DNA of 51,777 nucleotides from Candidatus Yanofskybacteria bacterium RIFCSPHIGHO2_12_FULL_45_19b (GTDB taxonomy: Bacteria; Patescibacteriota; Minisyncoccia; 2-02-FULL-40-12; IGHO2-12-FULL-4): assembly GCA_001794605.1 (NCBI GenBank), contig MGKD01000009.1:1-51777 (forward strand). The letters run 5' to 3'. The position numbers and the translations under genes are program-made. Every line of letters begins with the position of its first letter. Positions within the stretch are counted from its first letter, which is position 1. The notes under the pieces are model-generated. The model searched no databases. It saw only the letters and a program-made list of their open reading frames with translations, and was not told the origin of the DNA. Shown in pieces: positions 6,198-51,777 of the stretch.

Positions 6198-7541
6198 ATG
6201 AAGCGTAGCACGCGGCGGAAAATCCTTTATGGCAGTATCGTCTTTTTTCTCTTAGCCTGTGTCGGGGTTTTGTTTTATGCCCAAGGCTATGATTTTGATC
6301 CCAGCAATGGCCATGTCTCTAAAACTGGTGGGGTTAACTTGGTTAGCAATACTTCGGCTGAGATCTATTTAGACGGCAAGCTGGCTGGTAATACCTCACT
6401 CTTACAGCACGGTTTTAGTCAGTCCCGCCTCTTGCCTGGCAAACATCGGATTGAGTTGCGTAAAACCGACTACCAAACCTGGAGTAAGGAGTTTGTGGTT
6501 AGCGCGGGCTTTGTGTTTGATTTGGGTGAGGCATTTTTGCCACGTAGCCAGGCGGTCATCCAGACTTTATTACCGGACATTAAACCAGTTAGTTATTCCT
6601 CCAATAATAATTACTTAGTTGGTTGGGTAGGCGATGATTTAGTTTTTTATGATTTAAATCGACAACAGATATCGGTAACACTGGCCCAAAAAGAAAATAT
6701 CGATTCAACGAAATTAAATATTATTTGGGCGACGGACAATCAAACCGCTGTGCTATACGATAGCAAACTAGCTTGGGCGGTAGATTTAGGCGGGCAAACT
6801 TACCAAGCCGTAAATCTTCCGCGCAGTTTTTTACGTAGCGATGCCCAACTTTTAGCTGGCCGAGTTTATGCTTTAAGTACCCAAAAAAGTACTCCCAAGA
6901 ATCTAGTCTATTTCGATTTTAATAAGACTAGTAGTGGAACCTTGGCCAATGGCGTCAATTCATTCCTGGTTAACAATGGCTCAGTATTTTTCACCAGTAT
7001 CGCTAGTAGCACTATTTGGCAAATTAAACCTAATCAGACTAATCCGGTACAACTCAGTGAAACCGCTCTACCAGCCAAGGCTAGTTTAATTAACATTATT
7101 ATTACAGAGGAAGCCACAGTCATCTCAACTGATGTTGGCTTATTCACTTTGAACGCCGAGAAAAAATTACTGAAAATATCCGCTACCGTAGATAATCTTG
7201 TTCTTTCTTCAGATAAATCAATTTTGGCCTGGAGCGTGGACAAAGAGTTGTGGATGTTGTTATTGAAATCCAACCCCCTGCGTTCGGAGCTGGTTACCGG
7301 TAAGCCAATATTTTTATTACATAAAGGCGAACGCATTGATGACTTGTTTTGGCTTAATAATCAGTATCTATATTTAGCTAGCGTGGCTAGTCTAGACTTA
7401 GTTGAAGTAGTATCCCAAACTCAGCCAGTCACCTATCGACTAATTGATAAAAATAGTGAGATTAACTCAATTGTTTTTCCAACTAACCGCGAAAAACTTA
7501 TCTGGCTGAACGAAGCTCGGCTAGAAAGCGCAGAGTTCTAA
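6198..7541 (+). CDS. membrane-anchored PEGA-domain protein
   Basis: N-terminal TM (ILYGSIVFFLLACVGVLFYA) followed by a PEGA-like segment (AEIYLDGKLAGNTSLL...LPGKHRIELRKTDYQTWSKEFVV). The rest is beta-rich and unassigned. Confidence 0.6.
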   Translation: MKRSTRRKILYGSIVFFLLACVGVLFYAQGYDFDPSNGHVSKTGGVNLVSNTSAEIYLDGKLAGNTSLLQHGFSQSRLLPGKHRIELRKTDYQTWSKEFVVSAGFVFDLGEAFLPRSQAVIQTLLPDIKPVSYSSNNNYLVGWVGDDLVFYDLNRQQISVTLAQKENIDSTKLNIIWATDNQTAVLYDSKLAWAVDLGGQTYQAVNLPRSFLRSDAQLLAGRVYALSTQKSTPKNLVYFDFNKTSSGTLANGVNSFLVNNGSVFFTSIASSTIWQIKPNQTNPVQLSETALPAKASLINIIITEEATVISTDVGLFTLNAEKKLLKISATVDNLVLSSDKSILAWSVDKELWMLLLKSNPLRSELVTGKPIFLLHKGERIDDLFWLNNQYLYLASVASLDLVEVVSQTQPVTYRLIDKNSEINSIVFPTNREKLIWLNEARLESAEF

Positions 7542-10500
7542 TGTCCGCTCATTCCGCGAGCATGTAAATAGGTTACTACTGCCGTGGCACTACGCAGCTC
7601 AACCGGATTTAGATGCTCTCTACTCAAGTCAAATATTCTTTGAATAATATCCAGCGCTGCCAACTCACCTCCAAAATAACCATCCTTGCTGTAACGTTGA
7701 GTAAACTCTTCAATGGTGTTTAGTAAGTCCCCTCCCTTAAAAGCTGCTTCACTTTTTTCGGTCTTTCTTTCTTTAGCTATTTCTTCCACTAAAAATCTTT
7801 GAAAAGCTTGTTCTTGAGCATTATCACCATGTGCCATCATTACCAAGTCAAAACCAGCATAACGTGAAGCATTTAGTGCTCGTCTAATGATGTTTAAGTG
7901 CGATTCTTTTACTTCTTTCAGGATTATATTTAATGCTTTTTCTAATTTACCATTCTGCAATTTTTTTATTTCTTCCACGTCTAAACTAGCGACCAATCTT
8001 TCTAACGCTGTTAGTTCTCTCTCGGCCTCGTTGTTTAAGCTTACTAGCTGTTCTTTAAACGCCTGACTACGTTCTGATAAACTGGGGAAACGCACGTTAG
8101 CTAACAGTTTCTCTTCCTCATCATCTGTACCACTTGGAGTACCATCCAAAACAATTACCTGCGCCTTGTAGCTTTCCGCTGGCCAAAGTGCAAAGGATAC
8201 ACCATGGGAATTTTTATCGGTAAGGACGGTTTCCCCTGGACCAGGTTGTAACCCTTGGATCATTCCAGACACAAACCCACATTCACGCAATAGCGCGGTG
8301 GTGAGTTTGGCAAAATCGGCACACACCCCAGCATATTTTTTATTAGTAAAATTGTTTCTTTCTTCTGGTTTAGCAGTGCGTTTTAAATCTTTTAAGCGTT
8401 GCGTCATTACGCTAATTATTTCCGTGATATTTTTGCCAGACTTTTCTGCTTGTACCGTTCGATTATCAAAATCATAGTGAGCAATGGAACGTACAAAGCT
8501 TTCGATAGCTTCTAGTTTTTCTACCGGACTAAGGCCAACGATAGATTTCACAAAAACCTTTAATTCAGTTGGTAATTTGGCAATCGGTTGGCTTACTTCT
8601 AAACCAAAATTTTTCTCACAGCGCATTTTAAATTTTTGATATTCATCTGCGCCTATCGTCTCCGGCACTAGTGGTAAGTCCTGAATAGTTTGTGAGTAAA
8701 TAACTCGCTCAATATCTTCGCCATCTTCATCTTCTTTCAGCTTAACCCGTGCTTCACCCATAGTGTTAAACTCTGGTGTAAGCGCCACTTCTATTCCACC
8801 CGCCTTTATCCCAATGACCCGTTCCGGAATAATGCTGGCATTGATACCTTTGGGTAAGATTACTGATTTCTTTCCTTTGGTTTTTTGTATTTCCGCTGTG
8901 ACTTCTCGCGTTGACCCGATATGGTTAGTTGCTAATGGAAAAGGGGCTTGTTCCCAGAGATTTCTCTTGGAATCGTAGCGTCCATAAATACCAGTGGAAA
9001 GCATTTCATTCATTGGCTCACGCAAATGCAACAATTCGGTGTTGACTGATTGCTTAGGATCGCCATCACGAAATTCAGTCGTATTTTGTCTGCCATCGAA
9101 TATGCCCGAGCCGTCACTGCGACTATGACCAGAACCACGATCAAAAAATGATCGTCTCTTTCGCCACTCAATCTCTCTCTGTAGGTCTGGGAATAAAGAA
9201 AAAATCAAATGATCAATGGCTTGGTTAGTGGTGTCATCTGATTTGGCTTTAATCAAATCCAGGAAAAGACTGGGCGATGCTTTAATTAATTCACTGATTG
9301 TGCCGGCCACCTTTTTAGAACGCTTTAGGTAGTTTTTTAGCTTATTCAAAGGCTCCACCTCTCTTTCCGGGTGATATTTGGCTAGATAGTCTTTGATTGG
9401 CTCAACTTCTTCTAACATTAACGCATTCAATAATTCCAGCTTTCTTTGCTCCGAATCAGTTAGTGTAAATTCTGGCGAGTAAAACAGGTAACGATGAACC
9501 TTACCATCATAATAAATTGGAATCCCCAGCTGGTCATTGTTAAGTGTTATATCTTCTGGATTTACCTGTTCTATCCCCAGGTCCACTGTCTCTCTACCCA
9601 GCAGTTTAAGTCGTAAATTTTTTACCTTACCATCGGACATTTTTGTGTATAATAAACGTCCGTTAAGAATGCCCACCGGATACAGTAAGCCACCCCCCTC
9701 AATCACCCGATCGCCAAAATGTATCGTTTCCGCCATTCTATCGGCAGAACGAACAGTATCAGTATTGGTGCTGTAAGTTAACTTGCCGTCAAAGGAGGGG
9801 AAAAGATTTAACTGCCGGTGTATGTCTGAAACTACCTCTCCTTGCTGGTTAATGATGTTACGATACTCTCGAGTCATTGGGCCAGACCCTACTTTCACTT
9901 CCGTTGTTACCACTAAAAAAACCTCGTCACCCGCTTTGGTGATTTCTTGTACTTCCCCAGTCAAATTAATAGGCAACTCTTCTCCGTTGTTATAAATTAT
10001 CTTTTCACCACTGTCTTTTTCTGCATAAAAATAATCAGTACTTTTACCGCTGGCCGTTACAAGATCGCGGTAGGGACCAAACTCTCTTTCGCCAGTAAAA
10101 AGTGATTGTTTAATTTCGTGTCCAACAAAGCCACGTGATATACGATATGAAACTACCCCATTTTTAACGGCTAGGTTGCTAAACCGGCCCTTGCTGATAG
10201 TGTTACCCTTTATTATCCTGCCGTTTTTAAAAATAACACTTTGGTACTCTGTATTTGCGTCATGCATGCCGGGTCTAACTAATTGTTTAGTTCCAATCCA
10301 ATAAATATCATCCCCCTCAACCACACATTCATTCGCTGATGTTCCAAAAGAATTGTCAGAGTTAACAAATTCTCCATCTACCACAACCTGTTGCGAATTA
10401 TCCTCAGGTTGACGAGACTCCAACACAGCCGTAAATAGTATTTTATCACCCTCCTTTTTTATATCCTCTATGAGTTTATACATTTTTGAACGCTTACCAT

Positions 10501-11698
10501 TAGGATAAAGAAAAAATGCATTTCCAGCGCGATCATGAATCTTTTCCCAAACTTCGTCTCCAGCCTCTACAAATTTTCTCCACAATCTAAGTTTTTTTGT
10601 GTTAATATCTATCTCTTCCGGACAATCCTCAGCCATTTTCTCGTAATACGGATCGTCTGGGGACATTTCATAGATAGCCGGCACCTCTTTGGCTAGGCGT
10701 AGATTTTCTTTGGTAAAGCCTTTCTCTTGCTTGCCGGTCTTATCAATTACTTCATATTTTTTAATAGTTTTGTTAAAGCGCAGTTCAAAATCTTCTGGTT
10801 TATAACCACGGTTGCGTAAACTAATTTCTAGTTCGGCCTTTAGCTCTTTCTGAGCAGATTGATTTTCAATATTAAAAACTTGGCCAAGCGGTCGGAAGCG
10901 TGCTTTTTCTAGCATGACTTCCAGTGAAGTTTTTTCAACATTAATAAGCATAGCTAATATCTCTCTTGCTACCTCCTCACCAACAAGATTTGAACTAAAC
11001 ATAGTTGTTAGGTCTAGGACTACTTCCAGTACATCGGGGTTTTTATCGTTGGCTCGTAAGTATTCTACTATCGGAGCAGTATAGTAATGTGGCTCTAAAG
11101 CTAGCCGAGCTTGTTCAATGTTAGTTTCCCCTAATTGCTCACCCAAAGATAAACCAGTCAGTGGAGTTTCTTGTTCGACCACTTGTCGTAAACGAATAAA
11201 ATTTTCGTAGTAGTGGTCTATCTCTTCAGCTAAGTCTTTGGTGGGTAAACTAAACCTACGATCGCCGATCTTAAACACCGCCGGCGTTCTTAGGCCAGAC
11301 TCCCTATCTTTTAGATGGCCCTCCACAAACATTTCTAAACTCAAGAAGTCTGCCTCATCTGCGTCGTTCCTATCATCTAAAAAGGGTTTGTATTCTTTTA
11401 TTTTGTTATTTAATTTTATCGCAAAATCTGGATGTTTGCTCAAAAAATCTGGAGAGTAAATACCAACCAGTCGTTCTGTCCGGCCCAAACTAAGCGCATC
11501 TGCTAATTCTAAGCCATCCTCTAGGGAGTGCTCGAATACTCTGTTAATCAAACAGTCACGCTCCATTACTGGTAGAGTTGGGCCAGTGTCTTTTAGTTTT
11601 TCAAACAAAACTTCTTTCTGTTTTTCTAAATCAAAATAGTCAACCTTTTCTGGGGTACTAGTAGTTGACAGATTTGGGGTTTCTTTTGGGTTTGGCAT
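7538..11698 (-). CDS. giant (~1386 aa) protein with C-terminal transglutaminase-like cysteine protease core
   Basis: Cys-His-Asp core pattern: YAGVCADFAKLTTALLRECGFVSGMIQG ... NSHGVSFALWP ... VLDGTP. Start set to ATG 11698 (MPNPKETPNL), because the tracked start 11770 runs through the rpsI terminator. Confidence 0.7.
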   Translation of the reverse strand: MPNPKETPNLSTTSTPEKVDYFDLEKQKEVLFEKLKDTGPTLPVMERDCLINRVFEHSLEDGLELADALSLGRTERLVGIYSPDFLSKHPDFAIKLNNKIKEYKPFLDDRNDADEADFLSLEMFVEGHLKDRESGLRTPAVFKIGDRRFSLPTKDLAEEIDHYYENFIRLRQVVEQETPLTGLSLGEQLGETNIEQARLALEPHYYTAPIVEYLRANDKNPDVLEVVLDLTTMFSSNLVGEEVAREILAMLINVEKTSLEVMLEKARFRPLGQVFNIENQSAQKELKAELEISLRNRGYKPEDFELRFNKTIKKYEVIDKTGKQEKGFTKENLRLAKEVPAIYEMSPDDPYYEKMAEDCPEEIDINTKKLRLWRKFVEAGDEVWEKIHDRAGNAFFLYPNGKRSKMYKLIEDIKKEGDKILFTAVLESRQPEDNSQQVVVDGEFVNSDNSFGTSANECVVEGDDIYWIGTKQLVRPGMHDANTEYQSVIFKNGRIIKGNTISKGRFSNLAVKNGVVSYRISRGFVGHEIKQSLFTGEREFGPYRDLVTASGKSTDYFYAEKDSGEKIIYNNGEELPINLTGEVQEITKAGDEVFLVVTTEVKVGSGPMTREYRNIINQQGEVVSDIHRQLNLFPSFDGKLTYSTNTDTVRSADRMAETIHFGDRVIEGGGLLYPVGILNGRLLYTKMSDGKVKNLRLKLLGRETVDLGIEQVNPEDITLNNDQLGIPIYYDGKVHRYLFYSPEFTLTDSEQRKLELLNALMLEEVEPIKDYLAKYHPEREVEPLNKLKNYLKRSKKVAGTISELIKASPSLFLDLIKAKSDDTTNQAIDHLIFSLFPDLQREIEWRKRRSFFDRGSGHSRSDGSGIFDGRQNTTEFRDGDPKQSVNTELLHLREPMNEMLSTGIYGRYDSKRNLWEQAPFPLATNHIGSTREVTAEIQKTKGKKSVILPKGINASIIPERVIGIKAGGIEVALTPEFNTMGEARVKLKEDEDGEDIERVIYSQTIQDLPLVPETIGADEYQKFKMRCEKNFGLEVSQPIAKLPTELKVFVKSIVGLSPVEKLEAIESFVRSIAHYDFDNRTVQAEKSGKNITEIISVMTQRLKDLKRTAKPEERNNFTNKKYAGVCADFAKLTTALLRECGFVSGMIQGLQPGPGETVLTDKNSHGVSFALWPAESYKAQVIVLDGTPSGTDDEEEKLLANVRFPSLSERSQAFKEQLVSLNNEAERELTALERLVASLDVEEIKKLQNGKLEKALNIILKEVKESHLNIIRRALNASRYAGFDLVMMAHGDNAQEQAFQRFLVEEIAKERKTEKSEAAFKGGDLLNTIEEFTQRYSKDGYFGGELAALDIIQRIFDLSREHLNPVELRSATAVVTYLHARGMSGH

Positions 11699-11730
11699 CT
11701 GTCTTAATTTAATCACAAAAATACCCAACC

Positions 11731-11755
11731 AAAAAGCACCCGAAGGTGCTTTTTG
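11731..11755 (-). terminator. rho-independent terminator after rpsI
   Basis: aaaaaGCACCcgaaGGTGCttttt: a perfect 5-bp GC stem with a tetraloop and U-runs on both strands. Confidence 0.7.
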
Positions 11756-11776
11756 GTGAGATAAGTACACAAAAGT

Positions 11777-43074: not shown

Positions 43075-43668
43075 CTAGAATCCGAGTGGTGGAGGGGCGT
43101 TAAGATCCCACAGCATCGCTGGCTGGTGCCAGGCCTTATGGAGAACGGTGTAGAAAATCGCACCGTCCCGAATCAGCTGTTCTGCGAAAGCCTGGAAGTT
43201 TTCCTCCGCTTCCGGTTGGGCCAATGGCCCGTACTCACGTAGCAGTTCCACCACTGGAACTGCTACCTCCATCCCATCGTGAGGAACCGAATGCCCCCAA
43301 ATGGGGTGTATCTCTCCATCCACCTCAACATCAACCCGGATGTTGGGGGAGTTAACGTGATGACCAGCTAAGGCCATTTCCACCAGGAGCGGTCGCACGG
43401 TTATCTTCCGCCGACCCACGGCCTGTCCACCGATCGGCCCTTCAATTGAGTTCTCAGTGGCGCCCTCGGTTAAACTTCCGAAGGCAAGACCAAAAACTCC
43501 CCCGTCTTTCTCCAGCGTCACCATGACGCCAGACTCAATGACTCGCAACGATTTGCAAACCCCGAGTGCGTCCTCCAGCCCAGGGTTATCTTTGTGAGTA
43601 ATGTGTACTAATCTACCCACAAAGATGTTGGACAACTTATTTTGAAAAACAAGCTTCGACTGAGGCAT
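43075..43668 (-). CDS. hypothetical protein (GC-rich gene, ~197 aa)
   Basis: Start set to ATG 43668, preceded by AAAGGAAG. His-rich patches (GHHVNSPN, WGHSVPHDG); no family recognised. Confidence 0.5.
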   Translation of the reverse strand: MPQSKLVFQNKLSNIFVGRLVHITHKDNPGLEDALGVCKSLRVIESGVMVTLEKDGGVFGLAFGSLTEGATENSIEGPIGGQAVGRRKITVRPLLVEMALAGHHVNSPNIRVDVEVDGEIHPIWGHSVPHDGMEVAVPVVELLREYGPLAQPEAEENFQAFAEQLIRDGAIFYTVLHKAWHQPAMLWDLNAPPPLGF

Positions 43669-43722
43669 GGATTCTTCCTTTCTTTTATCATTTTCATTCA
43701 AAGATCTGGTTAGACCAAATTT

Positions 43723-43989
43723 TCAAATTCCTTCCTTTGGCAACCAGCCTCGTCTTTCCATACGTTCGCAGGGAGTGCACAGCCGGGGGCGGGGTGGTTG
43801 ATAATCTTCAGGAAGAACGATCTCCCCTTTGCAGACGTCGCACTGAAAGTACATCGACGAACCCGCCCGGAGAGAGGAGTTGTCTACCGGCTTTTTGTTT
43901 TTGTTCTCCTCCTTCCTTTTTGCCAGAGCAGCAAGCGCGGTTTTCTTTTCTCTCTGCTCGTCACTCACGGGACTCACTGGTTTGGTCAT
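43723..43989 (-). CDS. small zinc-ribbon protein (88 aa)
   Basis: AGGAGG 4 nt before ATG 43989. C-terminal CDVCKGE...LCTPCERM (CxxC-x18-CxxC). Confidence 0.5.
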   Translation of the reverse strand: MTKPVSPVSDEQREKKTALAALAKRKEENKNKKPVDNSSLRAGSSMYFQCDVCKGEIVLPEDYQPPRPRLCTPCERMERRGWLPKEGI

Positions 43990-44128
43990 GTGACCTCCTG
44001 GGTTAGTAATGTGCTTGAAGCTGTGACAATACCATGCGACAAAGGAACAGTCAATCGGCTCAATTCCTGCCATTTGAGCTGATGGGTTACTGAGTGGTGG
44101 GTGTGATTTGTATTTCGTCAATCATAAA

Positions 44129-44356: not shown

Positions 44357-45184
44357 TTACCAGCAGATTTCGGGATCCTCGCCAATCTTTTCTTTTAGAT
44401 ATCTTTTAACTTCAGTTTGACCGCCGATTTTATCAATTAATTTATTCTGCAATGCCATCGTGCCGAGCATTGAAGAGCCATCGGCTAATTTTCTAACCTC
44501 CTCCAATGGAATACTCCGATTATGGGCCACGTCACTAATAAAATTATCCAGCATAATATCTAAATCTCTTTGGAAAAGTTTCCGCTCTTCAGCCGTCAAT
44601 GGCTTATTGGGATCGCCAGCATTTTTGAATTTACCGGTATTAAGTTCGATAAATTCTAGGCCATTTTGGGTGTTCTGGTTAACATTCTGCAGATAAGACA
44701 TGGTGACACCAATTCCACCAACATCCGAATTGGCTGAAGCAAAGATGGTTTTAGCACCAGTGGCTGACCAGTAGGCCGCCGACACTCCGCTCTCTCTAAT
44801 CTGGGCAACAGTGGGCTTGGTAGAATATTTAAGGGCATTGGCAATCTCTTCAGCCGCCACTCCTGAACCACCAGGAGAATCAACCTCTAAGAGTATCGCC
44901 TTAACCTTGGGATCGCTTTCGGCCTCTTGGATGGTGTTGACGATTTCCTCGGATGAAGTTTGATCTACCGGCTCTTCTTCGGTTTCACCCCCTAACCGAT
45001 AGGTCACGAGTTCCCCACGCAGTTCAATCCCCCAGACATTACAGCCATAGTCAGCTGAGGTTGAATCGGACCCGGGTTTAGCGGACTCGGACGGCTCATC
45101 GGGATAAAGTACCACCCAAAATAACACCGCCAGCAAAAACAGCGCGATGAAAAGCTTAAACCAGTTTTCTTTTAGCCAAGACAT
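44357..45184 (-). CDS. sppA: signal peptide peptidase SppA, 36K type (S49)
   Basis: N-terminal TM; LLEVDSPGGSGVAAEEI, SGVSAAYW, GGIGV. Confidence 0.85.
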   Translation of the reverse strand: MSWLKENWFKLFIALFLLAVLFWVVLYPDEPSESAKPGSDSTSADYGCNVWGIELRGELVTYRLGGETEEEPVDQTSSEEIVNTIQEAESDPKVKAILLEVDSPGGSGVAAEEIANALKYSTKPTVAQIRESGVSAAYWSATGAKTIFASANSDVGGIGVTMSYLQNVNQNTQNGLEFIELNTGKFKNAGDPNKPLTAEERKLFQRDLDIMLDNFISDVAHNRSIPLEEVRKLADGSSMLGTMALQNKLIDKIGGQTEVKRYLKEKIGEDPEICW

Positions 45185-45205
45185 AGTATTAACTAATAAA
45201 TACTC

Positions 45206-45481
45206 CTAATGAATCGCAACAATACATCTATTGCCCGACCCGTGTCGAGATTCTTGGGTACTGGCAATTTTAAATTCTGTCTTACAGATAATAATACTCG
45301 CTCTTTTGTCAGTAATATATTCGGCGATATTTTTTAAGAACAAAATATCAATTTTTCCAAACTCTTCAATTATAGCCTCTAGCGTAAGCTCCCAAGCACC
45401 TTTATACTTCTTCAAAAAAGTTCTAATGAAATGTCTTTCGGTAAAAAATTCAAAAATAACCTGATACCTAGTACAGCTCAT
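45206..45481 (-). CDS. 91-aa ORF translationally coupled to the HTH-Panacea gene; candidate toxin (unclassified, RelE/HigB-like tail)
   Basis: Its ATG (45479-81) lies inside the last codons of the upstream gene, a 14-nt overlap. KTEFKIASTQESRHGSGNRCIVAIH loosely resembles the GKSGGYRVIY strand of RelE/HigB toxins. Confidence 0.5.
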   Translation of the reverse strand: MSCTRYQVIFEFFTERHFIRTFLKKYKGAWELTLEAIIEEFGKIDILFLKNIAEYITDKRASIIICKTEFKIASTQESRHGSGNRCIVAIH

Positions 45482-46151
45482 GAGGATCTTCCTGGGTTAT
45501 AAGGGCATAGGAGATAATCGCCTCATCATCAGCCATCAAGTATGGTAGTTGATTATGAGTAAAATTAACTATTTCAGCGGTTTTCTTTCCATCCCATTTT
45601 TTATGGATAGCTTTCATTAGGAATGCCTCATCATCAGAAATAGTATTGAGTTTTTGTTTTTTATTGCTCTCTGATTCACTAATAATAAGCATTTCTTTCC
45701 CGTCAGCGTTTTTACGATTAATTATGATTTTGCCTTCTTCTTCAAGTTCGTCAATGATTCTAAAATATGCATCCGGGACTGGGCCATATTTGATTTTTCT
45801 ATATTGCATGCCACTCATACTTTGGAGATGGCTATAAAACCAAGCAAAATCGGAAAGATATACAAGTTTGGCTAACTTAGTCTTGGTAATACTTTTGCCC
45901 ATCCTTAAAAAAGCTACAATCATCTGCTTATACTTATCATGATTAGGAGATTCGCCGCTTTCAAGCTCTTCAAAAGAAACCCCTAAAACACTAGATATTT
46001 TTTCAAATTCTCCCATGGTCAATTCCCGCCTACCTTGTTCGATGGCCATATATGACTGACGAGAAAGACCCAACTTTTCTGCCATGGAGAGTTGCGAAAA
46101 ACCACCTTTTATACGAAGGTTTTTGATAATGGAAGCATATTTAGTACCCAT
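45468..46151 (-). CDS. XRE-family HTH fused to a SocA/PanA (DUF4065, Panacea)-like antitoxin domain
   Basis: HTH GGFSQLSMAEKLGLSRQSYMAIEQGRRELT, then ITKTKLAKLVYLSDFAWFY...YRKIKYGPVPDAYFRIIDEL, the pattern typical of DUF4065. Confidence 0.65.
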   Translation of the reverse strand: MGTKYASIIKNLRIKGGFSQLSMAEKLGLSRQSYMAIEQGRRELTMGEFEKISSVLGVSFEELESGESPNHDKYKQMIVAFLRMGKSITKTKLAKLVYLSDFAWFYSHLQSMSGMQYRKIKYGPVPDAYFRIIDELEEEGKIIINRKNADGKEMLIISESESNKKQKLNTISDDEAFLMKAIHKKWDGKKTAEIVNFTHNQLPYLMADDEAIISYALITQEDPHELY

Positions 46152-46157
46152 AGTGTA

Positions 46158-46186
46158 ACTATATCAAATTGATGTATATAATACAA
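46158..46186 (-). promoter_or_regulatory. promoter of the HTH-Panacea operon, leaderless candidate
   Basis: TTGTAT, 17-nt spacer, TATAGT; 6 nt to ATG 46151. Confidence 0.5.
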
Positions 46187-46205
46187 ACATGCAGTGTTGA
46201 TAAGT

Positions 46206-46233
46206 TTGACATGCTCTACGGAAAGAGTAAAAT
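46206..46233 (+). promoter_or_regulatory. divergent promoter, leaderless candidate
   Basis: TTGACA, 16-nt spacer, TAAAAT; 6 nt to ATG 46240. Confidence 0.55.
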
Positions 46234-46239
46234 AAAAAA

Positions 46240-46374
46240 ATGAACAAACAAAGAAAAACAAGTGCTGGGGTAGCTAGGGTTGCATCTCGTGTCTTAAAAG
46301 ACAAGAGAACAAGCCGTAGAAACAAGATACCGGCCGCAAGTGCACTTTCTCAAAGAGCACCAAAGAGAAAGTAG
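46240..46374 (+). CDS. 44-aa extremely basic peptide (below ORF-track cutoff)
   Basis: MNKQRKTSAGVARVASRVLKDKRTSRRNKIPAASALSQRAPKRK. Consensus-like promoter upstream and a GAGAGC...GCTCTC-TTTG hairpin downstream. Confidence 0.4.
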   Translation: MNKQRKTSAGVARVASRVLKDKRTSRRNKIPAASALSQRAPKRK

Positions 46375-46460
46375 CCACAAGGAGAGCGGGTCAGAACCTT
46401 GCTCTCTTTGCAGGGTCGCTATTCACCAACCATTTTAGAACTAATATAATCGTCTCCATA

Positions 46461-47629
46461 TTATTTTTTCTTATGTCTTATAAATATTCTTTGGTAAGCA
46501 GACTGAATTATCCTACCTTCTTTATTTATAAAATAATTCTTTTCCCCATCATTGCCAACTAAATTTGCATTTTCATTCGTTTTTCCACCAGAAGAACCTG
46601 TCTTTTGTCCATTTTGTTTTACTTCCCAATAGCCATCATATTTTTTCGTGTCAGGCACTTCATCATGACAACCCCTCTGGGTAGCACCCAAAATTTCAAA
46701 CTGATCAGGACTGTGTTTACCAAGAAAACTAATTGGCACACCCATTACTCCGTCGCAATCGCTGGGGATATATTTAACCAACGGAACCTCTACTGCGTCA
46801 TAGTTATCATACTTTCTAAATGGCTTTTTGTGCCAAATTTAATTATCTCTGCTTCGGTCATTATTGGTAAAAGTTTGTGACGTCGTCCATGATCAATATT
46901 TGTAAACCAGATTGTTCCGGCAACAAATGCGTATTTTTTGCCACCCTCCTCCTTGTGATAATTTTCAAAATTATCAGGGACTTGATACCACACATTTCGT
47001 CCATCGTTTTTACCAGCTCCGAGCCATATTCTATTATTCTTAATTAGAGGGAAGACTTCTTTATAGGTAATCGCGTTCATATTACTGATAATCACGAACT
47101 TCTTATTAGCTTCCATGATCCACGCCAAAAAATCACGGAAAAGCGAAAACGGTGGATTGGTAATAATAATATCTGCTTCATCGCGCAACTTTTTAATCTC
47201 GTCGCTACAAAAATCCCCGTCACCCTTAAGATAACACCACTCTAGGTCATTCACATCTATCTTGCCATCACCAGACTTATCACGAGACAGAGTGAATATT
47301 TTGCCGTTTTTAGTTGTTTTGTTTTTATCATATTGCGGGTCACTTGTTTCAAACAGTGTTGGTTGGTAGTTACTTTTGTAGCTTTTGCTATCCACAGCAT
47401 AACTGGTGCTAATAAGCTTTTTTAGCCCAAGCTCAGCAAACTTTTGGGCAAAAAACTTGGTAAAATTGCTCCACTCTGGATCATCGCACGGTAACAATAG
47501 CGTTTTACCTCGAAAGACATCGGGGTTGTATTCAATATAGGCAGCGATTTCTTTCTCAATATCGTGATATTGAGTATAAAACTCGTCATTCTTTGCCTTT
47601 TTAGTGTTACTGAGATTGCTATTTGCCAT
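46461..47629 (-). pseudogene. EcoRI-methylase-like N6-adenine DNA methyltransferase split by one frameshift
   Basis: N-terminus KNDEFYTQYHDIEKEI...LLLPCDDPEWSNF...GLKKLISTSY and IIITNPPF. The downstream frame continues the family pattern (KYDNYDAVEVPLVKYIPSDCDGVMGVPISFL). The frame change lies within 46790-46838, which includes an A5 run. Confidence 0.75.
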
Positions 47630-47681
47630 AAATTTATTTCACCCCACAGTTACTAAAAGTTTCTTTACCGTGTCGCGGTTA

Positions 47682-48554
47682 TTACTTCGCGATCTTCCAA
47701 ACACTCTTTTCTAGAAAGGCTTCGATGGTTTGACGGTTGGCTTTATTGATTAGGTTAGAGTGAGAAAGCTTGTTATTCTTGGCATATTCTACCAAGGTAA
47801 TAATGGTTTTACCTTCTAAATAGGCTAGGCGTTTATGATAGCTATTGGTGAGCGCTCGGCCGACCATTTCTTCCATAACATTAGTAGCATTTTTTTCGTC
47901 AAACTCCTTGAATGCTTCGTAATATTTATTTTTATCGATAAATTTTATGTTAATGGGAACAAACCCCTCTCGAATCAGTAGGTAATTGTTAATCACTCGT
48001 CCAATCCGGCCATTCCCGTCGACAAATGGGTGAATGTATTCAAAAGTGAGATGCAGTAACGCAATGCGCTTAATAATATTTTCATGGCTCGACGCATTGT
48101 ATTCTGCTAACATTTTGCCAAGACGATCTAATACTGCTTTTGGATCAGGAGCAATATGATTTCCGACGCGAACATACTCACCGTCTTTTCTAAATCTTCC
48201 CGCCACATCGTCGCGAATATTGGCAAGCAACAGCTGATGGAGTGATAAAATGACCTCCAGCGTAAGCTCTTGCTCTTTGGCTTTTTTATCTATGTATGAG
48301 ACAACGCGCGCTAAATTCTTAGCTTCAAAAATCTCTCGCTCAGTAATAAATCTATCCAGATCAATTTGCAGTAGGATCTTTTCTGTTTCTTCGAGTGTAA
48401 GTGTGCTATTTTCAATAGCATTTGAGTTATAGACCTGTTCAGCTACTTCATTTTCAGCGATAAGTTTGATTAGAGCCTCTTTACCAGTAGACGCCTTATA
48501 GTAGCGCTCGCGCAGAGAACTGATTTTATTGAAGATATTGAGGGTCTTTGCCAT
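47682..48554 (-). CDS. fic: Fic-domain protein, class II (N-terminal inhibitory motif), with C-terminal winged-helix-like tail
   Basis: Active site HPFVDGNGRIGR; inhibitory S-x-x-x-E-N motif SNAIEN upstream of it. Confidence 0.85.
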   Translation of the reverse strand: MAKTLNIFNKISSLRERYYKASTGKEALIKLIAENEVAEQVYNSNAIENSTLTLEETEKILLQIDLDRFITEREIFEAKNLARVVSYIDKKAKEQELTLEVILSLHQLLLANIRDDVAGRFRKDGEYVRVGNHIAPDPKAVLDRLGKMLAEYNASSHENIIKRIALLHLTFEYIHPFVDGNGRIGRVINNYLLIREGFVPINIKFIDKNKYYEAFKEFDEKNATNVMEEMVGRALTNSYHKRLAYLEGKTIITLVEYAKNNKLSHSNLINKANRQTIEAFLEKSVWKIAK

Positions 48555-48563
48555 ATGTTGTTA

Positions 48564-48634
48564 ATTGTAGGCCTTTTCACGCTTTTGTCAACTAAACCGT
48601 GAAAATCGGTGTTTTTATCGGGTTTTTCACGGTT
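48564..48634 (-). promoter_or_regulatory. fic promoter with three CGTGAAAA operator half-sites
   Basis: TTGACA (48586-91), 16-nt spacer, TACAAT (48564-69); 9 nt to the ATG. One half-site sits in the spacer (48574-81). A perfect 11-bp inverted pair, AACCGTGAAAA (48595-605) and TTTTCACGGTT (48624-34), is 18 nt apart. Confidence 0.6.
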
Positions 48635-48736
48635 ATGGGTGTAATTCTCCGTCGCTGACTCCCTCGATTCCGAAAAGAATTTTAACCTTCTTCACCCCTA
48701 AACTCTACGCCGATTTAGGGAATTTGGGAAGTGATT

Positions 48737-48781
48737 CAAAAAACAAAGCAACTATTACCTCCTGTGGATAATAGTTGCTTT
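48737..48781 (-). terminator. rho-independent terminator (second of two after the 155-aa gene)
   Basis: AAAGCAACTATTAtccacaggaggTAATAGTTGCTTT then GTTTTTTG. Confidence 0.65.
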
Positions 48782-48871
48782 TCAGCCCAGAATCTGTTAA
48801 ATTGGTAATGGCGCTTGGATGGGCTTGCCCTCTCACGGTCAATGTTTATCCAAACCGTAGCCAAGTGCCAA

Positions 48872-48897
48872 CAAAAAGCACCATTTAATTGGCGCTT
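48872..48897 (-). terminator. rho-independent terminator directly after the 155-aa gene
   Basis: AGCGCCAattaaaTGGTGCT then TTTTGT. It pairs better on the minus strand (G-U) than on the plus strand (A/C mismatch). Confidence 0.55.
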
Positions 48898-48904
48898 TTT
48901 GTTT

Positions 48905-49372
48905 TTAATCTAATTCGGGATTGCCATAATTCATTTTCCAACGATTATTATTTTTATCAATCTTCCAAAATGGTATGACGCTCCAAAAGAATTTTGGGCC
49001 ATTACTGATTTGTTTAACTACTACCCGAACACGTTTTTCATTCAAAATTGCTACAAATTCATAATATGAAACCGGCAAAAGTTTTGTCTCACTACGCTGG
49101 TTAGTACGCTCTACTTCAAAGTGGTGGGTGTGGCTAATTCCCTGGATGGTTCTGGTTGTATTAATAATTTCCTGAGCGAGAGGAAAAAGTTTGATCCGGA
49201 CGGTTTGTTCTTCAATCGTACGAGCATGGTGTTTACGCATAAATTTAAGGTGCTCCAAACCCTTCGCATTAAATATCACTGGCTCTTGAAAATACGGACA
49301 CCTGATTTCCCCGATTAGTTTATATCTAGCCTCGAACTCCAACTTGAATTTATCAAATTCTTCGTTAGTCAT
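48905..49372 (-). CDS. hypothetical protein (155 aa), own promoter and terminator
   Basis: Clean ORF MTNEEFDKFKLEFEARYKLIGEIRCPYFQEPVIFNAKGLEHLKF...; no family recognised by eye. Confidence 0.55.
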   Translation of the reverse strand: MTNEEFDKFKLEFEARYKLIGEIRCPYFQEPVIFNAKGLEHLKFMRKHHARTIEEQTVRIKLFPLAQEIINTTRTIQGISHTHHFEVERTNQRSETKLLPVSYYEFVAILNEKRVRVVVKQISNGPKFFWSVIPFWKIDKNNNRWKMNYGNPELD

Positions 49373-49406
49373 CTAGAAAAACCCTTTCTTTGTTTTCTAT
49401 ATTGAA

Positions 49407-49458
49407 ATTGTAGAGTAAATACGGCATTTCTTCAATAGTTTACAATTGTAAACTATTG
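49407..49458 (-). promoter_or_regulatory. promoter plus 26-bp perfect palindrome operator
   Basis: TTGAAG (49430-35), 17-nt spacer, TACAAT (49407-12). The palindrome CAATAGTTTACAATTGTAAACTATTG (49433-58) overlaps the -35. Confidence 0.55.
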
Positions 49459-49482
49459 AGTTTAGGGATCGATTCCATAAAT

Positions 49483-50463
49483 TTATCTTAACATCTGTGT
49501 CACGAGTGCCACCACTTGATCTTTCTTCTTTGGATCACTCTCGGCAATCAAAAGTGTCAACGCGGTAAGTGCATTCGGATTAATACTTCGCATTGTCTTA
49601 ATTTTTGTCTTTCGTAAAAACCAAATGAAAGCAAAAGCACCTGAGCGTTTATTGCCATCCGTAAAGGGATGATTCTTCACCATGAAATACAAAAGGTGCG
49701 CTGCTTTTTCCTCGAGTGTTTTATACACCGGCTTACCTCTAAATGATTGCATTACGTTTCCCACTATTCCTTCGACGCTTCCAGGTTGTTTTTCTTCTGC
49801 AAAAATATTCGTTGTTTCACCCTTACTTAAGAGTTCATTACGCAGATTTGAAATAGCTTCAGTCAGCTCTACTCCGCTTAATTCTATTGATTTTTTAGTA
49901 ACGCCGATTGGCTGTAAGGACTCCCTATCATACGCACCAAGTGATACCCAAGTGCTCGAGAATTCTTTGATAAGCTCAAGAATTGTTTTTGGATCAAGTG
50001 CAACATGTTCAGGTAATAAAGTTTGAATATCACTCACCGATTTCATAAAAGCATCATAGTTTCTCACAATCTGTTTGCGGTTTATGGTGTAGCCTTTTGT
50101 AATGTGCTCTCGAAGAGTTTTAGTGGCCCACTGGCGAAATAGTGTGGCTGTTTTACTATTCACTCGATAACCAACGGAAAGAATCATGTCGAGATTATAA
50201 TGTTTAACATCACGTTCAACTTGGCGCTTACCCTCATTTTGAACTATCCGGAAATTCCGGATAGTTGAAACTTCCGTAAGTTCTTTAGTTTTTAAAATGT
50301 TCTGGATATGTTCATTTATTGTTCTTACATCAACATTAAAAGCTCCAGCAATTTGGGCCTGAGATGCCCAAATTGTTTCGCGTGAATTATCCCCTCGTAA
50401 TTCAATTGCACCAGATTCCGCCTGGTAAATAACAATATTATTTTTTATTTGTTTCTTTTTCAT
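49483..50463 (-). CDS. RhuM-family N-terminal domain fused to Doc-type Fic domain
   Basis: N-terminus IVIYQAESGAIELRGD...HYNLDMILSVGYRVNSKTATLFRQWATKTLREHITKGY (RhuM pattern). C-terminus HPFTDGNKRSGAFAFIWFL (Doc variant HxFxDGNKR). Confidence 0.8.
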   Translation of the reverse strand: MKKKQIKNNIVIYQAESGAIELRGDNSRETIWASQAQIAGAFNVDVRTINEHIQNILKTKELTEVSTIRNFRIVQNEGKRQVERDVKHYNLDMILSVGYRVNSKTATLFRQWATKTLREHITKGYTINRKQIVRNYDAFMKSVSDIQTLLPEHVALDPKTILELIKEFSSTWVSLGAYDRESLQPIGVTKKSIELSGVELTEAISNLRNELLSKGETTNIFAEEKQPGSVEGIVGNVMQSFRGKPVYKTLEEKAAHLLYFMVKNHPFTDGNKRSGAFAFIWFLRKTKIKTMRSINPNALTALTLLIAESDPKKKDQVVALVTQMLR

Positions 50464-50507
50464 ATTAAAATCCTACCACTCCTTCAGTGATGAAGGCTAG
50501 GGTGTTT

Positions 50508-51026
50508 TTATTCTCCGTAAAAAATCTTCACCAATCTCGGCAAATCGTCCTTGCATTTATCACCAGTGGCAAGTTTTTCTAATAAGGCCTGTGGAGTGAG
50601 CCAGAAGTATTCAACAAAATCATCTTGATTGTAATCCGGCACCGTATCCATTTTGATTTCATACACATTCATATTACATGAAACACCATCTTGTTGGGGA
50701 CTGAGATGGCCGAGCAAACGAATTTGAATTTTATCGGTATCGAGATTCAACTCCTCCTGGGTTTCACGTTTAAGAGTAGCTTCATAGGTTTCAGCACTTT
50801 CTACGTGGCCGCCCATACTCATGTCTAAACATAACGGAAAACCTCTTTTACTCGCTGTGCGCCGCGGTATCCAGATTTCACCCTTGGAATTTACAATAAA
50901 AGCATTGACTACGCGGAAATTGGAAAGACCCTCGGCATAGACCTCCGAGCGTTTCTTTTTGCCGATCACCTGATCGTTGGTATCGACTAAATCTAGGTAT
51001 TCGTCTTGTGGCGCCGGATGATCCAT
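50508..51026 (-). CDS. NUDIX hydrolase
   Basis: Nudix box GGHVESAETYEATLKRETQEELNL. Confidence 0.85.
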   Translation of the reverse strand: MDHPAPQDEYLDLVDTNDQVIGKKKRSEVYAEGLSNFRVVNAFIVNSKGEIWIPRRTASKRGFPLCLDMSMGGHVESAETYEATLKRETQEELNLDTDKIQIRLLGHLSPQQDGVSCNMNVYEIKMDTVPDYNQDDFVEYFWLTPQALLEKLATGDKCKDDLPRLVKIFYGE

Positions 51027-51095
51027 TAGCCTAAACTATACACCGATTTAAAGAGTTTAGGAAGCCCTGAACCACGTAGATTCAGGGTTTTAAGC

Positions 51096-51134
51096 AAACA
51101 AAAAACCGCCTCCGAGAAGTGGGCCACGAAGGCG
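51096..51134 (-). terminator. rho-independent terminator
   Basis: CGCCTTCGtggcccacttctCGGAGGCG then GTTTTTTGTTTG on the minus strand. Confidence 0.6.
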
Positions 51135-51701: not shown

Positions 51702-51777
51702 TATCAATCACCTCCTGGGAAATCCTTCATTCCGTTCTGAAGTGCATAACTTCTGCAGTAGAATTAAGCCATGAAAG

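Follow-up and report, generated by a model that had tools for sequence, protein, structure and literature searches.

Description

An accessory island occupies approximately positions 45205-50463 of the 51,777-nucleotide stretch analyzed here (hereafter the window; contig MGKD01000009.1, positions 1-51,777, Candidatus Yanofskybacteria bacterium RIFCSPHIGHO2_12_FULL_45_19b, assembly GCA_001794605.1) and lies between sppA and a NUDIX hydrolase gene, with all genes but one on the minus strand. The island is interpreted, with good confidence, as a hotspot of six independent cassettes and not as one system; two of the cassettes have decayed, and one combines a 155-amino-acid (aa) LPD3-like protein with a structured small RNA (sRNA). 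On this interpretation it would be a horizontally acquired hotspot of autonomous defense and toxin-antitoxin (TA) cassettes in the chromosome of a groundwater member of the Patescibacteria. The flanking genes and the protein-coding parts of the cassettes are as follows.

44357-45184: sppA (TIGR00706, E 1.8e-45), flanking the island
45206-45481, minus strand: truncated PanT toxin, 91 aa, overlapping the PanA gene by 14 nt
45468-46151, minus strand: PanA-type antitoxin, 227 aa, with an N-terminal Xre helix-turn-helix (HTH) and a SocA/Panacea domain (Pfam HTH_3, E 5.8e-13; SocA_Panacea, PF13274, E 3.8e-12, residues 93-202)
46240-46374, plus strand: 44-aa basic protein (phrog_5079, E 1.7e-11, full length)
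46461-47629, minus strand: pseudogene of an EcoRI-family N6-adenine methyltransferase (EcoRI_methylase profile)
47682-48554, minus strand: class II Fic protein of the AMPylase type, 290 aa, with a C-terminal extension (Pfam Fic, E 6.7e-23)
48905-49372, minus strand: solo LPD3-like protein, 155 aa, the partner of the small RNA
49483-50463, minus strand: RhuM N-domain joined to a Doc-type Fic domain, 326 aa (Pfam Virulence_RhuM, E 1.3e-25; Fic, E 4.4e-11)
50508-51026: NUDIX hydrolase gene, the other flank of the island

An earlier, sequence-only reading of this DNA had described the island as more A+T-rich than its flanks, and both windowed GC content and tetranucleotide usage confirm a foreign composition. 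The GC content is 0.378 in the island vs 0.445 in the rest of the window, and none of 799 equal-length windows outside the island falls below 0.404 (mean 0.443, standard deviation (SD) 0.015). The tetranucleotide L1 distance of the island is 0.260 vs 0.134 ± 0.019 elsewhere (maximum 0.195; rank 0 of 160), a departure of 6.6 SD, and the GC content at third codon positions (GC3) is 0.26-0.40 for island genes vs 0.35-0.57 for genes elsewhere in the window. Profile scans with Pfam, PADLOC, and NCBIfam reproduced every one of the earlier domain calls, and PADLOC recognizes the Fic protein (SoFic/PDC-S04) and RhuM-Doc (PDC-S23). The statement that the stretch holds solely toxin, immunity, or modification-type genes in a host-dependent bacterium is likewise supported by the PADLOC matches, the foreign composition, and the host: relatives of SppA above 39% identity all belong to metagenome-assembled genomes (MAGs) of Patescibacteria, and the host is therefore placed there (Parcubacteria-type). 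Identical contigs were recovered from many groundwater metagenomes, and exact-protein look-ups gave about 20 assemblies of one population.

Exchange of cassettes between strains

The fetched assemblies of this population were compared with the window by BLAST (fetched loci are numbered with an L). Locus L002, from a 99.4% identical strain, matches the window solely up to position 48638, directly upstream of the Fic operator; beyond that point a host-like (GC 0.47) glucose/sorbosone dehydrogenase (GSDH) gene is joined to the segment carrying Fic, the methyltransferase, PanA, and sppA. Two more contigs terminate at 48637-48654, near this breakpoint. Locus L016 (99.98% identical) matches solely down to 46458, the stop codon of the methylase. 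Past its breakpoint (L016 5408-6562, GC 0.326), a gene for a HEPN-like 159-aa protein, which has an RNAMAH motif and weak Pfam HEPN matches, and a PDC-S05 RhuM gene (E 1.1e-88) replace the block of the 44-aa, PanA, and PanT genes. Since L002 and L016 diverge from the window at different points, at least three blocks (50463-48639, 48638-46459, and 46458-45205) are exchanged independently. The modules also occur singly elsewhere, and homologues of each are found in other defense islands without the other modules.

The sequence-only reading had suggested a composite abortive-infection or TA island, and the data do not bear this out. A single integrated multi-gene defense or abortive-infection system, in which the Fic enzymes, the methylase, and the Panacea module cooperate, would agree with the tight packing of the genes on one strand and with the company that Fic genes keep: they lie within 6 kb of homologues of the 155-aa gene in three of four contexts, beside the Panacea pair in L082, directly before the methylase here, and before HsdM in L080. 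It is nevertheless extremely improbable, given that the blocks separate within the same population, that the neighboring Fic genes elsewhere are 24-29% identical and of other architecture, that intact methylase relatives pair with a restriction endonuclease (REase) and not with Fic, and that two of the components, the truncated toxin and the frameshifted methylase, are pseudogenes. Neighbor clustering over 70 loci found no conserved protein neighbor of the 155-aa gene, the commonest being HsdM directly upstream (9 loci), and homologues of RhuM-Doc and of the 155-aa protein are never neighbors elsewhere.

Decay of two cassettes

The first decayed cassette is the PanA-PanT pair. What had been listed earlier as a 91-aa open reading frame (ORF) is indeed present, and it is a truncated RelE-fold toxin. 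Its family comprises at least 570 homologous clusters, all of 129-133 aa, and in the alignment the window copy ends after residue 91; it represents the first 91 of approximately 132 residues, is 41 aa short, and is left without the last beta-strand and the C-terminal helix. In L085, an intact copy (90.6% identical at the DNA level), homology is lost at window position 45204, 21 nt from the start of sppA, and the toxin gene was therefore cut at the junction of the island edge with sppA. The pair of 227-aa and 132-aa genes with a 14-nt overlap recurs in L082-L086, where the intact toxin always follows the HTH-Panacea gene. The truncated toxin is presumably inactive, because the last strand and the C-terminal helix are absent, and PanA is now probably an antitoxin-only relic or an "anti-addiction" gene.

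The intact 132-aa family has a predicted alpha-beta fold of the RelE/ParE type. An AlphaFold2 (AF2) model of an intact member (pLDDT 84.5) was searched with Foldseek, for which the best match was 1wmi_A (E 1.7e-3, prob 1.0, TMt 0.70) and most of the top 30 matches were RelE, HigB, YoeB, YafQ, and ParE. Sequence profiles for the family gave no match to Pfam (25 members), CDD, or PDB profiles. HTH-Panacea antitoxins pair with many unrelated toxins (PMC8832971, Kurata et al. 2022). The window pair resembles the PanAT systems in that an HTH and Panacea (DUF4065) antitoxin is followed by a toxin to which its translation is coupled; PanAT toxins come from freely varying families, and those reported include mRNA-interferase-type toxins (PMC8832971). 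It differs in that its toxin family is RelE/ParE-like by predicted fold alone and in that the window copy lacks the C-terminal third.

The second decayed cassette is the methylase, described earlier as a frameshifted N6A methylase, which is confirmed. The gene falls into two reading frames, one coding for 279 aa (profile positions 1-251) and the other for 106 aa (269-345). With one A added to the A5 run at 46825-46829, the frame is restored to 389 aa, and the product aligns along its entire length with intact homologues of 389-405 aa at 70-79% identity. The one-base deletion in the A run is carried by all of the approximately 20 independent Illumina assemblies and is therefore real and not a sequencing error. 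Intact relatives are followed in 3/3 contexts by an overlapping gene of approximately 387 aa with GmrSD_N (DUF262) and HNH domains (PADLOC REase_II, E 7.6e-83), at L087 3309-4472, L089 5203-6363, and L090 6056-7219; the methylase and the DUF262-HNH protein constitute a widespread restriction pair. The cognate REase gene is absent from the window locus, and the breakpoint of L016 falls exactly where it would start. The methylase had also been called an orphan, and it does stand alone here, although as a relic of a restriction-modification (R-M) pair and not as a deliberately orphan enzyme. These comparisons identify it as the remaining, decaying partner of a type II R-M pair, in which loss of the nuclease was followed by the frameshift. 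Its likeness to type II R-M systems (PADLOC MTase_II/REase_II) lies in the 70-79% identity to M subunits, whereas the missing nuclease gene and the frameshift set it apart from a working system. A functional pairing of Fic with the methylase was considered and rejected, as Fic never precedes the intact methylase relatives (3 contexts).

Origin of the island

The island might alternatively be the decayed remnant of a single mobile element, such as a prophage, an integrative plasmid, or an integrative and conjugative element, of which addiction and anti-restriction genes are left over. The low GC content is uniform across all cassettes, the 44-aa protein and Fic match phage families, LPD3 is a domain found in polyvalent proteins of phages and conjugative elements (PMC5512222), and edge truncation and pseudogenes are compatible with decay. 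Such an origin is nonetheless unlikely. The island contains neither att-like repeats nor genes for an integrase, replication, structural proteins, or transfer; IMG/VR, the INPHARED phages, and the PLSDB plasmids lack both the 155-aa family and its RNA; and the strains show turnover cassette by cassette and not the presence or absence of one element.

Several observations weigh against the reading of the island as an acquired hotspot of autonomous defense cassettes. The label "defense" comes from hidden Markov model (HMM) matches to candidate systems and from gene neighborhoods. An empty sppA-NUDIX site was not demonstrable, since a scan for SppA in GTDB genomes gave 54 loci with a best identity of 61% and no shared synteny; the sole NUDIX gene beside sppA among the scanned loci (L021) lies on the other side of sppA. 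Integrases, recombinases, transposases, and att or direct repeats were sought at the island, and solely short repeats at chance level were found. No promoter belonging to RhuM-Doc itself is recognizable, and the gene may share a transcript with NUDIX. For the RNA cassette, the promoter in the window is weaker than consensus at both its -35 and its -10 hexamers, no pairing site conserved in the mRNA body or 5' region was found, and neither a 5' untranslated region (UTR) nor a Shine-Dalgarno sequence is conserved.

As a defense or TA island, the locus is ordinary. It shares foreign composition, Fic, Doc, R-M, and TA genes, and turnover between strains with the defense islands recognized by PADLOC and DefenseFinder (SoFic, PDC-S04, PDC-S05, PDC-S23). 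It differs from them in its setting in a reduced Patescibacteria genome, in that two of its six cassettes are relics, and in having an LPD3-like and sRNA cassette that appears in no defense catalogue. The island does show, for an ultra-small bacterium that depends on a host, that cassettes turn over at the strain level and that immunity genes decay.

The LPD3-like protein and its convergent RNA

The RNA gene was not noticed in the sequence-only reading, which had called the 155-aa gene an orphan; the gene is in fact one of a large family whose members come with their own RNA partner. The features of this cassette other than the coding sequence are listed below.

48745-48781, minus strand: additional strong terminator on the strand of the 155-aa gene (15-bp stem and T run), overlapping the sRNA promoter and with the DnaA-box-like motif in its loop
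48763-48802, plus strand: RNA promoter, with a DnaA-box-like TGTGGATAA (48763-48771), -35 TTGCTT (48775-48780), and -10 TTAAAT (48797-48802)
48804-48904, plus strand: structured small RNA gene of approximately 100 nt, convergent with the 155-aa gene (covariance-model hit)
49407-49459, minus strand: promoter-like site of the 155-aa gene, TTGAAG-17-TACAAT (9/12)
49432-49459: perfect 28-bp (14+14) palindrome upstream of the 155-aa gene and over the -35, with halves TCAATAGTTTACAA and TTGTAAACTATTGA

When the intergenic DNA was compared with the fetched loci by BLAST, conservation just past the 155-aa stop codon far exceeded that of the protein: 67 nt were 100% identical in a comparison in which the proteins share 53% identity. 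The core of the RNA is 88-100% identical between loci whose proteins are 43-70% identical. A further 80 loci were fetched from metagenomes. A covariance model finds the RNA directly after the stop codon, and always on the opposite strand, in 80/80 loci with room for it. The model (R1) has a single hit in the window (48804-48904, plus strand, 108.6 bits, E 5.8e-21), and the RNA was not found in 660 kb of Patescibacteria DNA without the 155-aa gene. Rfam, scanned over 45100-51100, gave no match, whether the cut-off was the gathering threshold or E<=1.

The RNA folds into a three-way junction: P1 has 9 bp, P3 pairs GGG with CCC and has a CUUG loop, and P2 has 5 bp and a loop of 14 nt. At its 3' end, an intrinsic terminator (a hairpin followed by U6-7) directly adjoins the 155-aa stop codon; the 155-aa gene shares this terminator in the opposite sense. 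On 61 non-redundant sequences, the fold was examined with RNAalifold, and covariation was assessed with slid-partner and shuffle controls. Pair cells are standard in 94% of cases vs 40-53% with slid partners, pairs changed on both sides number 15 vs 5-9, and the covariation score is 0.322 vs 0.06-0.14; 0/500 shuffles reach any of the observed values. P1, P2, and the terminator each contain compensatory changes. The strand of the RNA is assigned from G.U pairs (columns 11-69, 37-59, and 13-67), which would be A.C mismatches if read on the gene strand, and from the minimum free energy, which is lower on the antisense (RNA) strand in 49/61 sequences (p 4e-7).

Promoter elements lie at a fixed distance from the RNA across the 61 loci: a -10 in 55, a TG extension in 47, and a -35 in 53. 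A DnaA box (TTATCCACA, in either orientation) is found upstream of or over the -35 in 18/61 loci as an exact match and in 37/61 with one mismatch, compared with backgrounds of 0.45% and 2.3% (p about 1e-28 and 1e-45), respectively. The RNA is very probably real and transcribed, and its functional coupling to the LPD3-like protein is nearly as probable.

The conserved element could instead act as DNA or as coding sequence, for example as a protein-binding or origin-like DnaA site, as a folded single-stranded recombination site (attC or an IS200-type end), or as a small ORF (MALGWACPLTVNVYPNRSQVPTKSTI). The near invariance of the core (88-100%) relative to the protein (43-70%), the DnaA-box motif alongside together with a box-like TTATCCAAA in the P2 loop, and the ORF that can be read through the element in some loci would all fit such a feature. 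The compensatory changes in the stems and the terminator, the G.U pairs that are valid on one strand only, and the combination of a sigma-70 extended -10 promoter at fixed distance with a U-tract terminator on the same strand make it a very unlikely explanation; further, the candidate ORF has no conserved start codon, indels in the loops disrupt its frame, and no recombinase or transposase is associated with the element.

Other roles for the RNA were tried and discarded. By eye, the RNA does not match the hammerhead core, nor does the terminator have a conserved alternative partner of the kind found in riboswitches. Antisense regulation of the 5' UTR or the coding region was rejected, with duplex energies equal to those of shuffled controls and no consistent site. 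As a small ORF the element fails on its unconserved start codon and on loop indels that are not multiples of three.

L108 (5505-6307) has a second, divergent copy of the 155-aa gene in tandem, directly after the first, and this paralogue is accompanied by its own convergent RNA (53.7 bits); the protein and the RNA therefore duplicate and diverge together.

The 155-aa protein itself has no match in Pfam, PADLOC, or NCBIfam. There are 73 close clusters of its family in Patescibacteria, and a profile search recovered 1158 clusters (50% identity) at E<=1e-3 and 487 at E<=1e-10, nearly all of them solo proteins of 150-165 aa. Ten of 27 members match Pfam LPD3 (PF18798) weakly (best E 5.7e-6), whereas the window protein does not, and a fold search of BFVD with the AF2 model returned weak matches to LPD3 polyvalent proteins and no others (prob 0.6-0.98, E 0.07-0.23). 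The AF2 model is of the alpha/beta type (pLDDT 87.6); PDB sequence, profile, and Foldseek searches gave no match to a known fold. Homologues are found in defense islands, within type I R-M operons and beside PemK, Zeta, Fic, PIF1/AEP helicases, and SNase/TaqI, and homologues of the Panacea module likewise sit in defense islands elsewhere. Neither the family nor the RNA was found among the viruses and plasmids of IMG/VR, INPHARED, and PLSDB.

Judged by Rfam, PADLOC, Pfam, and the literature searched, the pair of LPD3-like protein and sRNA is undescribed. Two kinds of TA system offer comparisons. In some type I systems an antisense RNA converges on the toxin gene and the two share a bidirectional terminator, as in fst/RNAII (pAD1), txpA/RatA, and bsrG/SR4; Fst-Sm/srSm is described as having a cis-encoded antisense sRNA antitoxin (PMC3543317). 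The protein and sRNA genes of the window converge in the same manner and would overlap in the 3' terminator hairpin alone, so that the mRNA and the RNA could pair through their 3' ends in a type I-like manner. The differences are that the 155-aa product is a soluble alpha/beta protein, not a small hydrophobic peptide, and that the near-invariant core of the RNA lies outside the overlap, without a conserved mRNA target.

Type III systems (ToxIN, AbiQ/antiQ, CptIN) share with the window cassette a strict 1:1 relation between a structured RNA and a protein of approximately 150-170 aa, and the defense contexts; a protein-binding role would also account for the invariant loops. The window RNA differs in being a single copy on the opposite strand and downstream of the gene, not a set of tandem repeats upstream on the same strand, and the 155-aa protein has no ToxN/AbiQ-like fold. 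Because the invariant parts of the RNA lie outside the overlap and no RNA target was found, protein binding is the most economical reading: the invariant junction and loops would bind the LPD3-like protein, following a type III-like antitoxin or cofactor logic. The RNA would then restrain or regulate the protein by binding (type III-like), by antisense overlap at the 3' end (type I-like), or by both.

A toxin or immunity role, the best guess for the pair, is possible but somewhat less probable than its absence. About as probable is the full model of a new RNA-controlled toxin or immunity module of Patescibacteria defense islands, in which the RNA binds or gates the protein and RNA synthesis is tied to DnaA and hence to replication. 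The status of DnaA would feed into RNA expression, and phage takeover or replication stress would release the protein.

The RNA promoter suggests a link between DnaA and a module of an immunity island. The RNA constitutes a well-supported new structured class: it has an evident protein partner, a defined promoter and terminator, covariation, and 61 non-redundant examples. The pair offers a first approach to the function of LPD3, a domain that occurs in polyvalent proteins of phages and plasmids. At approximately 0.7 kb, the pair is small enough for synthesis and direct test in a model host.

The remaining cassettes and their promoters

The catalytic motifs pointed out in the sequence-only reading, GNGR of the AMPylase type and GNKR of the kinase type, were both found. 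The GNKR motif belongs to RhuM-Doc (H265PFTDGNKR273) and fits the Doc consensus HxFx(D/N)(A/G)NKR. The match of RhuM-Doc to PADLOC PDC-S23 is full-length (E 2.1e-109), with residues 3-325 aligned to positions 3-323 of a profile of 327. No ORF for a Phd-type antitoxin is present near it; the Doc domain is fused to the RhuM N-domain instead. The classical phosphorylation target of Doc is EF-Tu. RhuM-Doc is a candidate single-gene defense protein, putatively of the abortive-infection type, in which the RhuM domain would act as the gate for Doc-type phosphorylation. Protection of E. coli against T7, T5, and T4 has been reported for a PDC-S05 (RhuM-domain) gene (bioRxiv 10.1101/2024.09.26.614923).

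In two distantly related MAGs of Patescibacteria (L030 2458-3402 and L050 14292-14875), homologues of RhuM-Doc (62-64% identical, one of them split) are encoded no more than about 7 kb from sppA. This proximity may be a coincidence or a recurrent hotspot.

In class II Fic proteins, the inhibitory motif stands N-terminal to the core. The Fic protein of the island has the AMPylase motif H175PFVDGNGRIGR186 (HPFVDGNGRIGR), which fits HxFx(D/E)GNGRxxR, and on the same chain the N-terminal motif S44NAIEN49, which fits (S/T)xxxE(G/N), and it is therefore classified as class II and self-inhibited. It matches PADLOC PDC-S04 (E 8.5e-35) and SoFic (E 2.6e-29); its NCBIfam SoFic score of 43.9 bits, against a cut-off of 550 bits, indicates that it is not an orthologue. 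A promoter and operator-like site (48564-48634, minus strand) consists of TTGACA-16-TACAAT (11/12) amid three copies of CGTGAAAA arranged as inverted repeats (48574-48634), and the block boundary of L002 at 48638 lies just upstream. Fic would be expressed from its own operator-controlled promoter and, once released from auto-inhibition, would act by AMPylation as a putative single-gene effector of the abortive-infection type.

In L002 (1-1923), the Fic promoter abuts the GSDH gene, and the NUDIX, RhuM-Doc, 155-aa, and RNA genes are not at that position.

The 44-aa cassette would encode a small basic protein of phage type; tblastn found no match to the protein in phages, despite the PHROG match. 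Its promoter (46206-46233, plus strand) is TTGACA-16-TAAAAT (11/12 match), and the -10 box ends approximately 7 nt before the ATG, from which the transcript is probably leaderless. By eye, the -10 of the Panacea gene (46152-46190, minus strand) is perhaps equally close to its start. Such short distances between -10 and start at 46206-46242 (plus strand) and 46152-46190 (minus strand) suggest leaderless mRNAs.

Promoter-like sites are not enriched in the island overall (22 found vs 18.8 ± 4.8 expected from shuffled sequence). The earlier statement that every unit has its own promoter holds for Fic, the 44-aa ORF, and the 155-aa gene and fails for RhuM-Doc and the methylase. Palindromic operator-like repeats, proposed earlier for several units, are present for Fic (48574-48634) and the 155-aa gene (49432-49459) and for none of the others.

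Observations outside the island

Downstream of sppA, at window 43075-44121, two ORFs (132 and 208 aa) correspond to a single 332-aa gene in L001, L002, and L012 and to ORFs of 88 and 197 aa in other assemblies; these variable calls reflect a polymorphic stop or frameshift within the population. A 1410-aa ORF at window 7538-11770 (minus strand) has the lowest GC3 outside the island (0.349) and just a weak match to a transglutaminase core, and it may be another foreign or fast-evolving surface gene. Many independent assemblies (L001, L003, L008, L011, L013, L016, and L018) stop at a common point approximately 87 nt past the window end at 51777, which suggests a repeat or a strain-variable junction there.

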